Source: Candidatus Iainarchaeum sp.
GTDB taxonomy: Archaea > Iainarchaeota > Iainarchaeia > Iainarchaeales > JAFCCJ01
Direction of reading: 5' to 3'
Length of the DNA: 38,458 nucleotides
Assembly: GCA_043816965.1 (NCBI GenBank)
Contig: JBDRHK010000028.1
Coordinates: 1-38,458, forward strand
Shown: one piece after another, positions 6,950 to 34,991 of the stretch
Layout: each line of letters begins with the position of its first letter
Position numbering within the stretch: position 1 is the first letter of the stretch
Translations under genes and position numbers: made by a program
The notes under the pieces: model-generated
The model's database searches: none
What the model saw: only the letters and a program-made list of their open reading frames with translations
What the model was told of the DNA's origin: nothing

Positions 6950-7498
6950 ATGCTGGACCAATATGTAATTGTTAAAGCAATTGAGGCAATAACCTCGCAA
7001 CCGAACAAAAGTTTTTCGGTGAGGGGCCTCGCATCTGCAATTAGGATAAGCCCCGGTTCTTCCGGAAAGGCACTGGATTTTATGGCGAAAAAAGGGATTG
7101 TAACCCTTAAAATAATAGGCCGAAGCTATCAATACAGGGCAAACCTTGAAAGCTCCTTGTGCAGGCAGTGGAAAATTCTATTTAACCTTGACCTGCTTGC
7201 TGATTCCGGATTTACCAAGGAAATAACCAAGAAAATCCCGGGTCTGCACTCAATTCTCCTATATGGCAGTTTTGCAAAGGGGACAAATGATGGGAAGAGT
7301 GACGTAGATATTCTTGTTATTGCCAGCAAAAAACCGGCAAAACGGCATGGCTTTAGGAGCAAACTGAAAAGGGAAATTAACCTTTCAATCATTAGCCTCA
7401 AAGAATGGAAGGTAAAATCTGAAAAAGAAAAGGTTTTTTATGAAAACGTAATTTATGATTCAATCGTTTTGCATGGAACAAGGCCGGTGGTCCTGTGA
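6950..7498 (+). CDS. HTH-fused minimal nucleotidyltransferase (MNT antitoxin)
   Basis: N-terminal HTH; LYGSFAKG...SDVD (GS-x10-DxD); stop overlaps HEPN start (GTGA). Confidence 0.9.
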   Translation: MLDQYVIVKAIEAITSQPNKSFSVRGLASAIRISPGSSGKALDFMAKKGIVTLKIIGRSYQYRANLESSLCRQWKILFNLDLLADSGFTKEITKKIPGLHSILLYGSFAKGTNDGKSDVDILVIASKKPAKRHGFRSKLKREINLSIISLKEWKVKSEKEKVFYENVIYDSIVLHGTRPVVL

Positions 7499-7917
7499 AT
7501 GTTGAGGATTGCATAAATGATGGTTTGCTGGTTAAAGTAAAAGCGGATGTTGAAAAGGCAAAAATGTCCCTGCAAATGGCAGAACACAAGATAGAATTGG
7601 CAGAAAAGGAATTCGAGCACGAAATCTTTGAAAACGCAATCATCAGTGCTTATACTTCGATGTTCCATTCTGCAAGGGCGCTCTTGTTCAAGGATGGCTT
7701 TAAGGAAAGAAGCCATTTTGCAATTTTTGTTTATGTGGACGAGAAATACTCCTCTAAAATCGAGAGAAAATACATCAATGAATTGCAGGCGCTGAGGATG
7801 CAGAGACATGAGCTTATGTATGGCCTTAGAAAAGGCCCTGAAATTGAGGAATCAGAAGCCGATTCCGCGATTAAGATGGCGAAAGGCTTTCTTGAATCTG
7901 TTGGAAAGATGGTTTAA
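7495..7917 (+). CDS. HEPN domain protein (UPF0332-like toxin)
   Basis: AYTSMFHSARALL, RSH, RHELMY; directly follows MNT. Confidence 0.9.
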   Translation: MNVEDCINDGLLVKVKADVEKAKMSLQMAEHKIELAEKEFEHEIFENAIISAYTSMFHSARALLFKDGFKERSHFAIFVYVDEKYSSKIERKYINELQALRMQRHELMYGLRKGPEIEESEADSAIKMAKGFLESVGKMV

Positions 7918-9991: not shown

Positions 9992-10035
9992 TTTCTCACC
10001 TTTTAAATTATCCCCTATATTCTATTTATCCCTTG

Positions 10036-10047
10036 CCCTTAACGGCT
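10036..10047. repeat. 12-bp direct repeat CCCTTAACGGCT, copy A
   Basis: Identical to 11107-11118; the two copies flank the Fic gene. Confidence 0.85.
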
Positions 10048-10092
10048 GTTTTCAAGTCGTCATATCAGTGTAGCAATTCAGGCCAACCACGC

Positions 10093-11034
10093 CTAAATAT
10101 ATTTAATATAAATCTTGAATAAATTTTCAAATGTTTTTTTATATTTTGCGAGAAAAAATCTTTCGAGGTTTTCAGCATAGCCATTGTCGTAATCGCTGAG
10201 GCATTTTAGGTATGCGGTCCTCTGGCTTTTTCTTATTATCAATGGGGCATATCCTTCATTCACCAGACCGACGTTAATTATGAATCTTCCGACCCTCCCA
10301 TTTCCGTCATCAAAAGGGTGTATTTTTTCAAACTTGCCATGGAAATGAGCCGCCTTTTGCAGCGGGTGCATGGTCTTTTCCTGTTTGAACCATTCAATAA
10401 GATTTTTCATCTCCCTTACTACCTCTTCAGGCGGCACTGTTTCAATCCTTCTCCCAAGCAGGAAATTCGGCAGCTTCTTGTAACCTGTTTCGATTTCCAT
10501 GTCCCTAACCAGCATTTTGTGCAGCTTTATGATGTCCTTCTCCTTTACCCTGAATTTATTCTTCAGAATAGCGTCAACCACTTTCCTGCTGTTTCTTGTT
10601 TCATAAATCTCCCTCAGGTCCTTGTCCTTTATCATCCTGTTCTCGAACATGACAATTGCGACGTCCTTAAGTGTAAGGGAGTTTCCCTCAAGCGCGTTGG
10701 ATTCATATGTGAAGTTTACGGTGAACCTGTCGAAGAGGTCCTGCAGTTGTTTCCTTGTCAGTTTTGAAGTGATTTTTTTGTATTCCTGTTTTGTAGTCTC
10801 AATTTTCAGGATTTGTTCTTTTGTGTAAACACTGTTGGTTTTGAACCGTTCAAGGGCATTTTTTCCTTTCAGCTCGTCCTCCTTTGCATTGAAATAAGCC
10901 GCAAGTTCAGGAGTGACCTTTCTTTTTTCCACCCTTTTGCTGAGTTTGGCCAGCTTTCCATTCGGCAGCCTGACCGAATGGACTGCATAGAGGTATTTCT
11001 TCCCCTTAATCTTTTTCTCGGAAAAATAAACCAT
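10093..11034 (-). CDS. Fic-domain protein (class II) with N-terminal KKIKGKxY domain
   Basis: HPFDDGNGRVGR; inhibitory SNALEGN helix; ATG at 11034. Confidence 0.93.
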   Translation of the reverse strand: MVYFSEKKIKGKKYLYAVHSVRLPNGKLAKLSKRVEKRKVTPELAAYFNAKEDELKGKNALERFKTNSVYTKEQILKIETTKQEYKKITSKLTRKQLQDLFDRFTVNFTYESNALEGNSLTLKDVAIVMFENRMIKDKDLREIYETRNSRKVVDAILKNKFRVKEKDIIKLHKMLVRDMEIETGYKKLPNFLLGRRIETVPPEEVVREMKNLIEWFKQEKTMHPLQKAAHFHGKFEKIHPFDDGNGRVGRFIINVGLVNEGYAPLIIRKSQRTAYLKCLSDYDNGYAENLERFFLAKYKKTFENLFKIYIKYI

Positions 11035-11041
11035 AATTATA

Positions 11042-11087
11042 GTTAACCCCACAAATTATTTAAACATATGGGTTTTGTGGTGTTAAC
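11042..11087 (-). promoter_or_regulatory. Inverted-repeat operator (13/14 bp arms) straddling the Fic TATA box
   Basis: GTTAACCCCACAAA-N18(contains TTTAAA)-TTTGTGGTGTTAAC. Confidence 0.75.
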
Positions 11088-11105
11088 AAAAAATTGCCTA
11101 TTTGT

Positions 11106-11195
11106 TCCCTTAACGGCTATCCCTCGCGGAGGACCTAAGGGCCGGGTTTACGGGACCGTCCCCCGTAGGGGACATTGCTCGGTCTTAAGCCTCGC
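11106..11195 (-). ncRNA. Candidate ~90-nt structured non-coding RNA, unclassified
   Basis: GC-rich island in an AT-rich intergenic region; GUCCCC-UACG-GGGGAC and UCC-GCGA-GGG tetraloop hairpins on the minus strand; TATAAAAA ~27 nt upstream. Confidence 0.55.
11107..11118. repeat. 12-bp direct repeat CCCTTAACGGCT, copy B
   Basis: Identical to 10036-10047; forms the 3' end of the RNA candidate. Confidence 0.85.
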
Positions 11196-11251
11196 AAAAT
11201 GCTAAAGAATAAGCTTTTTATACCAGTGAGTGCCTTTATAGTAAGGATACT

Positions 11252-12013
11252 ATGGCGATTGAAAAGGTAAAAACCGGAATCCAGGGTTTGGATAAGGCCC
11301 TTGAGGGAGGAATCCCGAAAAACAACGTTGTCCTTGTTTCAGGAGGGGCAGGTACAGGTAAGAGTACCCTCTGCATGCAGTACCTGATTAACGGCGCCAA
11401 ACTCTTTGGCGAAAAGGGATTGTATATATCCACTGAGCAGAAGAGAAAGGAACTGATTAAGGCAGGCTCCAATTACGGCTGGGATATTGAGGGCCTTGAG
11501 CAGAGAAACCTGCTCAAAATAGAATATTTCGATGTTGTGGCCAGCGACAATGCCCTCGAAAAGATTTACGATTTATACACCTCATTCACCCCCCAAAGAA
11601 TTGTGCTTGATTCCTTAACAACATTCACTGACTCACTTTTGGTTTCCGGTATGCGCGAAGACACCGCTTTCTCAATGGTGCAGGTGGCAGAATCAGTCTC
11701 GCCAATCCCGCGCACGGAAAAAGTGGTTGCGAAATCACTCCTTTACCATTTAATGAATAAAATCAGATTGTTTGATGCGACAGTAATCCTCACATCTGAA
11801 CTCCCCGAAAAGAGCAACTATCTTTCAGCAGATAATATTTCAGAGTTTATTTGTGATGGGGTAATGGTGCTAGAATACCTCTCAGTAGGTGCCTCAGTAT
11901 TCAGGAGCATGCGCATAAGGAAAATGCGCTACACTAACCACGAAAAGGGTTCCCTCCCCTATGAGTTAGGCCCAAAAGGCGTCAACTTCACCGAAAAGGA
12001 TTTGGAAATTTAA
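11252..12013 (+). CDS. Single-domain KaiC/RAD55-like RecA-superfamily ATPase
   Basis: KTGIQGLD, Walker A GGAGTGKS, RIVLDS, IRKMR. Confidence 0.92.
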   Translation: MAIEKVKTGIQGLDKALEGGIPKNNVVLVSGGAGTGKSTLCMQYLINGAKLFGEKGLYISTEQKRKELIKAGSNYGWDIEGLEQRNLLKIEYFDVVASDNALEKIYDLYTSFTPQRIVLDSLTTFTDSLLVSGMREDTAFSMVQVAESVSPIPRTEKVVAKSLLYHLMNKIRLFDATVILTSELPEKSNYLSADNISEFICDGVMVLEYLSVGASVFRSMRIRKMRYTNHEKGSLPYELGPKGVNFTEKDLEI

Positions 12014-20080: not shown

Positions 20081-20154
20081 TTCCCGCCGGAAACCCCCCT
20101 TAAGTAAAATCGCACCGGAAACCCGCTCTCCCCAGAAATGATTTTAAACCACTT
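20081..20154 (+). repeat. 74-bp direct repeat, copy 1 (promoter-containing)
   Basis: 68/74 identical to 22401-22474. Confidence 0.92.
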
Positions 20155-22400: not shown

Positions 22401-22474
22401 TTCCCACAGGAAACCCCCCTTAAGTAAAACCGCACCGGAAACCCACCCTCCCCAGAAATGATTTTAAATCACTT
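22401..22474 (+). repeat. 74-bp direct repeat, copy 2
   Basis: 68/74 identical to 20081-20154; TTTTAAA ~30 nt before ATG 22492. Confidence 0.92.
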
Positions 22475-34792: not shown

Positions 34793-34851
34793 ATAGCCAA
34801 TTATGCTGGCTGGTTAATTTATACTTTTGGGTTCGGTAAAAAAAGAGAAAG

Positions 34852-34991
34852 CGGACGAGGGCGGATTTGAACCGCCGACCTACTGCTGTCGACCCCTTCT
34901 CATAAATCTGCGAAAAGGGTTAGGAGGCTTGCAAGAAGCATAGAATGAACTACTGCCTCTAGTTGCCCTATCCAGACTAGGCTACCCGTCC
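34852..34991 (-). tRNA. tRNA-Arg(CCT) with two introns (29/30 and 37/38)
   Basis: Acceptor GGACGGG/CTCGTCC; T-arm GGCGG-TTCAAAT-CCGCC; anticodon arm ACTGC-CTCCTAA-GCAGT after removing 34929-34960 and 34888-34920. Confidence 0.9.

Follow-up and report, generated by a model that had tools for sequence, protein, structure and literature searches.

Between kaiC (11252-12013, plus strand) and a Fic-domain gene in this Candidatus Iainarchaeum contig lies a short element rich in hairpins, with speD and fhs located beyond Fic. An initial annotation described it as an unclassified structured RNA of about 90 nt and proposed that it was the original leader of speD-fhs, perhaps a riboswitch for SAM, polyamines or C1 units, or otherwise a ribozyme or small RNA. 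Given that riboswitches are rare in archaea, a riboswitch claim here would attract attention, and the locus raises the question of what the element is and whether it belongs to speD-fhs at all. We analysed the whole 38,458-nt stretch of DNA (hereafter the window) together with its host genome (G000; a 1.34-Mb assembly, 86% complete, from an Iainarchaeum-like DPANN archaeon) and its relatives. The reading that we favor, with a probability of roughly 0.6, is that the element belongs to a family of modular intergenic repeats, each built of three hairpins, that extends across the lineage as an archaeal counterpart of bacterial REP/BIME elements, and that the copy seen here is chimeric and has partly decayed.

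The window copy and its locus

The letters of the minus strand at 11195..11106 match those quoted in the initial annotation. The parts of the element and of the surrounding locus are as follows.

11215..11222, minus strand: TATAAAAA box, at -27 to -20 relative to the first G of the element
11177..11195, minus strand: P1 hairpin, GCGAG-stem/loop-CGAGC with symmetric tandem G.A/A.G, placed by covariance-model alignment
11158..11173, minus strand: P2, a perfect 6-bp hairpin with UACG loop, the variable module of the family, placed by sequence and model
11150..11157, minus strand: J2/3 linker GGUCCCGU, following the family pattern G-GU-NNN-GU
11142..11149, minus strand: 5' strand of P3 (AAACCC) and loop bases 1-2 (GG); the partner GGGUUU is missing here
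11121..11141, minus strand: type-1 insert within the P3 loop, two mini-hairpins, the second with a GCGA cap
11107..11120, minus strand: remaining P3 loop (AUAG) and a foreign P3 3' strand of the CCGUUA type
11088..11093, minus strand: T6 run, 13 nt past the element
10093..11052, minus strand: Fic-domain gene, with a TATA-like box of its own at about 11056-11065
10036..10047, minus strand: copy 2 of an exact 12-nt direct repeat, 46 nt past the Fic stop codon

Several local features of the initial annotation were borne out. GUCCCC-UACG-GGGGAC (11173-11158, minus strand) forms a hairpin without mismatch, UCC-GCGA-GGG in the window copy forms a small hairpin capped by GCGA as the reported GNRA loop, and the proposed TATA box, TATAAAAA at 11222-11215 (minus strand), stands at promoter distance from the element and faces kaiC on the opposite strand, in line with the suggested back-to-back sharing. 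The sister species, which lacks the element here, has kept this box. Judged from its sequence, the T6 run is a possible archaeal terminator of a short transcript, and the window copy may give rise to an orphan transcript of this kind, reaching from the TATA box to the T6 run. The copy is a GC island (0.60, against 0.27-0.45 in the surrounding AT-rich spacer). The inner stem of its P1 contains one C.A mismatch, and its P3 cannot form because AAACCC is joined via the insert and AUAG to a CCGUUA-type 3' strand, a type of P3 that is present in other copies of the family. The window copy is partly decayed and chimeric, with a broken P3 and an extra hairpin in the loop. Its whole 90-91 nt fold no better than dinucleotide shuffles (z -0.28 and z -0.35), and the opposite strand behaves alike (z -0.13).

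The larger architecture that had been drawn did not hold. The long-range helices GGCU/AGCC and GACC/GGUC are not conserved by the family, in which GGCU..GACC is the local P1 hairpin. The CCCUUA/UAAGGG pseudoknot is unique to the window copy, with no UAAGGG after the insert in the other type-1 copies seen, and its 3' arm is part of the 12-nt direct repeat bracketing Fic. The suggested resemblance to twister found no support, an Rfam search at E <= 10 returning unrelated noise only. Rfam 15 gave no match at gathering score in the window, and its search of 10900-11400 gave only unrelated matches (15-22 bits, E 0.6-7). Run without introns, ARAGORN predicted no tRNA anywhere in the window; run with introns, it predicted a tRNA-Cys(GCA) with a 44-nt intron at 34851-34991 (minus strand). 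The designation as an unclassified structured element is right in that its hairpins are conserved and co-vary in relatives (see below) and that Rfam 15 does not contain it.

Comparison with the sister species (G001) separated the element from speD-fhs. The element, Fic, speD, and fhs are all oriented alike, and Fic is separated from the element by the T6 run and a second TATA box. In the sister species, the kaiC-speD spacer is 110 nt long, carries the same TATAAAAAGCT, and contains neither the element nor Fic. Identity with the sister runs through TATAAAAAGCT, ends at window position 11211 and resumes at 10010, and the intervening segment of 1.2 kb (10011-11210; unit and Fic) is absent from the sister species between kaiC and speD. 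With filters off, the best match of the covariance model in the sister kaiC-speD region had an E-value of 1.9 and lay inside kaiC. The claim that Fic is an insert was thus confirmed by the sister spacer, and the same spacer lacks any homolog of the element. Since the window copy sits in the segment missing from the sister, it is not the speD-fhs leader; copy number, unrelated neighbours (see below), and synteny exclude a riboswitch or leader of speD-fhs and rule out the proposed original-leader role. Nothing links the window copy specifically to speD or fhs. On the plus strand, CCCTTAACGGCT occurs at 10036-10047 and 11107-11118 and brackets Fic, not the unit; the chance expectation of such a 12-nt repeat within 1.3 kb is about 0.05. 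The window copy would have arrived with or beside a toxin-type cassette carrying Fic, whose insertion point is immediately downstream of the TATA box of kaiC/speD.

Gene content differs elsewhere in this neighbourhood as well. In the sister species, a 228-aa gene of the 2-phosphosulpholactate phosphatase family (PF04029, E 2e-42; L112:2602-3288) lies between speD and fhs, which are only about 40 nt apart in the window, and the neighbourhood therefore gains or loses genes on both sides of speD. A pair of nucleotidyltransferase (MNT-type) and HEPN genes adjoins fhs at 6950-7917 (plus strand) and is a further toxin-antitoxin-type module in the Fic neighbourhood.

A lineage-wide family of three-hairpin units

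A BLAST search of the element against its own assembly found it in 4 places, nhmmer with an HMM built from eight copies gave more than 20 matches, and a covariance model (R1) gave 26 matches, 25 of them distinct, as two are one sequence at two contig ends. A regular expression for the whole unit was too loose (about half of its 28 matches were true), and nhmmer and the covariance model were used instead. The sister species has 26-29 model matches. The initial annotation had named a match to the end of a known mobile element among the findings that would speak against its reading; the searches found a repeat with 25 distinct copies in the genome, which in spirit is such a finding.

The unit is 65-90 nt long and consists of three hairpins in the order P1-P2-P3. 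P1 comprises (U/A)GCGAG, a stem of 2-4 bp with a tri- or tetraloop, and CGAGC, and closes with the symmetric tandem G.A/A.G. A linker of two bases leads to P2, which in the family is a perfect hairpin of 8-9 bp whose sequence is free, and the linker G-GU-NNN-GU leads on to P3, whose stem has 6-7 bp and whose loop reads RRAUAG. A 111-nt BLAST search over 40 relatives found the element in the same genus only; the covariance models revealed the wider family. R1 detected the unit in 16 of the 151 genomes of the order, and R2, a covariance model rebuilt from 95 matches, in 30 of 151 related genomes (phylum sample) from 10 of 29 families, with no match in any of the 11 genomes of families f33-f37. 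Carrier genomes have 1 to 29 copies. When 20 loci with good copies were searched against Rfam, only tRNAs were matched. The exact type-1 insert pattern occurred in one record among public genome contigs (a Candidatus Iainarchaeum MAG, L118), a count from which the own genome may be excluded, and in none among public metagenome contigs. Public sequencing runs searched for the window stretch yielded no RNA run and 4 DNA runs, the best with 0.22 of the words. No published description of the hairpin family was found in the literature searched.

The stems are well supported by covariation. As MAFFT misaligned short P1 variants, model-fitted alignments were used. Across 60 distinct members, 88.4% of cells were paired, compared with 61.7% in shuffles and 24-43% in slid-partner controls, in an alignment that was fitted to the model and is thus biased toward the structure. 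In the same members, 22 of the 23 pairs change on both sides, and the covariation score was 0.582 against 0.154. Covariation in relatives, which the initial annotation had left to be checked, is therefore strong in this model-fitted alignment. On the strand given by that annotation, G.U/U.G pairs outnumber A.C/C.A by 53 to 13 in the 60 members and by 73 to 26 in 94 members, and the excess appears in every context (tRNA-convergent 16:6, co-directional 7:1, other 50:19). Of the 60 distinct members, 51 retain the G.A tandem and 3 have A-U/C-G in its place. Furthermore, the three-hairpin shape is the minimum-energy structure in 8 of 10 canonical copies (z -3.4 to -6.9). Perfect hairpins drawn from a recombining pool, or hairpin-templated quasi-palindrome repair, can nevertheless mimic compensatory change without RNA selection.

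Units beside tRNA genes and other neighbours

Run with introns, ARAGORN predicted 33 tRNAs in the own genome, and 13 of them have a unit at a distance of 0-2 nt, which always faces the tRNA with its P3 end. Ten of these flush units are convergent, P3 meeting the 3' end of the tRNA, and three are co-directional, P3 meeting the 5' end (two Ser, one Cys). The Rfam tRNA model confirmed nine flush tRNAs in the 20 loci searched. The 94 distinct matches divide into 20 tRNA-convergent, 12 co-directional, and 62 other units, where the tRNA-linked counts are an undercount because inner array members and missed tRNAs fall under the last class. Stable-RNA genes are approached in other ways too: only 2 nt separate a unit in G017 from the 3' end of the gene for RNase P RNA, and an antisense unit makes up the predicted 89-nt intron of tRNA-Ala in the sister species and the predicted 82-nt intron of tRNA-Arg in G010. 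Units also form head-to-tail tandems with no spacer between them as well as inverted clusters, and one G026 locus has the order TATA box, two units, tRNA. A search with the archaeal RNase P RNA model gave matches in 4 of 4 relatives tested and none in the 86%-complete own assembly, whose RNase P RNA gene is probably unassembled rather than absent. The idea of a lineage without RNase P was rejected, as RNase P RNA was found in 4 of the 5 genomes tested.

The other neighbours of units are unrelated to one another (Fic, PIN, MazE-PIN, and unnamed genes). A co-directional upstream gene ends 3-70 nt before the unit at about 14 of about 21 loci (arrays collapsed by hand, crude ORF calls), a proportion not clearly different from the general gene order of the genome. 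The AT-rich tract at -12 to -1 often contains the stop codon of the upstream gene, and no positioned TATA/AT peak was seen at -26 in 37 copies. On contigs C26 and C31, the 5' end of the unit is 10-14 nt away from the start of a gene that lies on the other strand and in line with the tRNA. Given this distance, only the opposite strand is plausibly transcribed, and the arrangement fits a strand-specific RNA role poorly. At these loci (C26:17688-17867, L027; C31:25668-25897, L040) and at L053 of the sister genome, tRNA, antisense unit, Shine-Dalgarno sequence, and start codon stand on one strand, an order that is conserved in the sister species. This order suggests tRNA-mRNA co-transcripts in which the unit would become the mRNA 5' end after cleavage by RNase Z.

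Two further recurrent modules were observed near units. One is a 25-nt GC-rich motif, CGCACCGGAAAC...CCCGAAA, followed by a TATA box; units sit directly before it, and it is often fused to the 3' end of a unit and also stands alone upstream of many genes. About 27 of the 58 regular-expression matches to the motif in the genome carry TATA. Two of these lie in the window, at about 20101-20150 and 22421-22470 (both on the plus strand), with a variant ending ...CCCCAGAAA. The motif probably serves many genes alike as a promoter or as an upstream regulatory module. The other module, …CCACCCGCAUAC…GCAGCUGCUGGGGG…, was seen immediately ahead of hairpin units or the promoter motif, in the own genome at C38:30696-30740, at three places on C57, and at C96:4073-4100 (L003, L035, L031).

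Taken together with the favored reading, these placements suggest how the units could be maintained. They would persist in parts of transcripts that are trimmed off, or beyond stop codons, where the stable hairpins would act as end buffers, flush with the cuts of RNase P, RNase Z, or the splicing machinery or just past stop codons. A flush hairpin might shield the neighbouring RNA end from exonucleases, and hairpins might limit read-through between tightly packed transcription units. In these very small DPANN genomes, where non-coding DNA is scarce, the family occupies much of it, and its units are tied to the leaders, trailers, and introns of tRNAs. Should they serve to protect or punctuate the ends of transcripts, they would have a part in how compact genomes express tRNA-mRNA co-transcripts.

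Turnover, competing readings and known systems

The units are mosaic and turn over between species. In 24 of the 26 copies of the own genome, the best partners for P1, P2, and P3 are not one single copy. For the 12 positions that are orthologous in the sister species, identity between modules lies anywhere between 0.12 and 1.0, against a mean of 0.38-0.56 for random pairs, with flanking genes that are 85-92% identical, and unit copy number differs between the two species. Two unrelated types of insert were found at one position of the P3 loop, after the second loop base: type 1 in 5 copies of the own genome and in 1 among the sister-genome loci examined, and type 2 in 1 copy here (two contig ends) and 2 in the sister. 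Several copies have nested hairpins in their P2 loops, and many are cut down, nested, or chimeric, the window copy among them. The window copy, C22:18786, and the C38 copy share a near-identical left part that is joined at the loop to three different P3 3' strands. All three have the type-1 insert and a broken P3, and they lie upstream of Fic, PIN, and MazE-PIN. The sister species also lacks a second segment, 1.6 kb long, that contains a unit and a PIN gene; the PIN-cassette junctions examined revealed no clean repeat. We infer that units spread and reshuffle by recombination or by insertion of hairpins into loops.

No enzyme was found to account for this turnover in general. The Y1 transposase (RAYT/IS200; PF01797) and TnpB were both present in G026 and G049, and had no match in the own genome (86% complete), the sister genome (89% complete), or G017 (complete, one contig). 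IS200/IS605 elements (RAYT, TnpB) were therefore rejected as the general driver, being absent from 3 of the 5 carrier genomes tested. Tyrosine-recombinase matches numbered one to three per genome, and none adjoins a unit; G017 and G049 have only one each, which we take to be the chromosomal Xer-type enzyme. A dedicated integrase was rejected as the general driver too, since no recombinase tracks the units.

Several other readings of the units were considered against this background. That they are a new kind of non-autonomous mobile hairpin element in archaea is possible but less likely than not: they would insert as hairpins into loops and at the boundaries of stable-RNA genes, seed tRNA introns, and travel with promoter modules or toxin-antitoxin cassettes, moved by host enzymes via single-stranded DNA or RNA-processing intermediates with no transposase of a known family. 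Were the units mobile in this way, they would offer a concrete handle on the origin of archaeal tRNA introns and on the gain of toxin-antitoxin cassettes. It is quite unlikely that the units are instead recombination sites or insertion hot spots at the DNA level, with single-stranded hairpins somewhat like attC or IS200/IS605 ends, through which cassettes are gained and lost. The three type-1-insert copies with broken P3 directly upstream of toxin-type genes, two of whose segments are absent from the sister species, would suit such sites, as would the joining of one left part to three P3 3' strands, the two insert types at one loop position, and the exact 12-nt repeat that brackets Fic and includes the foreign P3 3' strand. 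Unit stems are also often closed by C-GNA-G triloops, which are very stable DNA mini-hairpins. However, no recombinase or transposase tracks the units, a 12-nt repeat within 1.3 kb has a chance expectation of roughly 5%, the PIN-cassette junctions have no clean repeat, and the ancestral target cannot be reconstructed because the sister has no unit at the Fic site.

Small stable non-coding RNA genes, expressed from their own promoter or released by RNase P from tRNA precursors and acting in trans, for example by binding a protein through the G.A hairpin, are unlikely. The strand-specific structure with its conserved G.A tandem, the order-wide conservation of the architecture, and the window copy, flanked by TATAAAAA at -27 to -20 and by T6 13 nt beyond, are consistent with such genes, and co-directional units before tRNAs (G026; the Ser and Cys tRNAs here) must be co-transcribed. 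On the other hand, no TATA peak stands out at -26 among 37 copies, P1, P2, and P3 are swapped freely with no conserved sequence in P2, the copies in introns and on C26 and C31 are transcribable only in antisense, and many copies, including that in the window, are cut down, nested, or chimeric. A riboswitch-like leader (SAM, polyamine, C1) or self-cleaving ribozyme of speD-fhs or Fic is very improbable. It would agree with the orientation of Fic, speD, and fhs, the promoter-like box upstream, and the GNRA and UNCG loops, but the sister kaiC-speD spacer lacks the element, 25 copies stand beside unrelated neighbours, T6 and a separate TATA box precede Fic, the window copy folds no better than shuffles, and Rfam at E <= 10 gave no riboswitch or ribozyme match. 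The finding of a repeat family thus does away with a false riboswitch lead and provides instead a defined model with which structured repeats of this family can be searched for.

The modular intergenic repeat that we favor shares individual features with several known systems. Like riboswitches and twister, it folds compactly, in an RNA-like manner, into several hairpins with GNRA and UNCG loops; unlike them, it has no Rfam match, is tied to no single gene class, is a multi-copy mosaic, and lacks a conserved single-stranded core beyond short linkers. The features of MITEs, terminal inverted repeats and target duplications of fixed length, were not found: the units have no terminal inverted repeats, with 5' (U/A)GCGAG and a variable P3 at the 3' end, and the 12-nt repeat brackets Fic, not the unit. 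Integron attC sites are single imperfect hairpins with R''/L''-L'/R' cores and IntI nearby; the architecture seen here is one of three hairpins. As with the transposed bulge-helix-bulge tRNA introns of Thermoproteales, one family occurs inside and outside tRNA introns, but most copies here are outside tRNAs, and both intron copies examined run antisense to the structured strand. Mitochondrial double-hairpin elements, GC clusters, and Rickettsia palindromic elements are likewise small GC-rich hairpin modules of AT-rich compact genomes, nested in one another and found next to tRNA genes as well as within introns and variable loops. Those elements belong to other hosts, have other sequences, and are usually present as near-identical copies, whereas the modules of this family are highly diverged yet still pair.

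The closest likeness is to bacterial REP/BIME, the repetitive extragenic palindromes and their mosaics, with REPINs. Both are GC-rich hairpin repeats in short intergenic spaces, tens per genome and often just past stop codons, and both form mosaic clusters of strand-specific hairpins that tolerate G.T/G.U. The unit differs in having three hairpins over 65-90 nt, where REP is one palindrome of 20-40 nt, and in its 5' end, (U/A)GCGAG in place of a GTAG/CGTC tag. Its arrays are mostly head-to-tail, the RAYT-type Y1 transposase is missing from 3 of the 5 carrier genomes tested, and the family is strongly tied to the ends of tRNA and RNase P RNA genes and found in tRNA introns as well. Roles in transcript-end protection and termination are among those proposed for REP/BIME (PMC3733652, PMC2817692, PMC12306157). 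With 25 distinct copies, tandem and inverted clusters, and shuffled modules, the family shows the high-copy intergenic hairpin mosaics that characterize REP/BIME.
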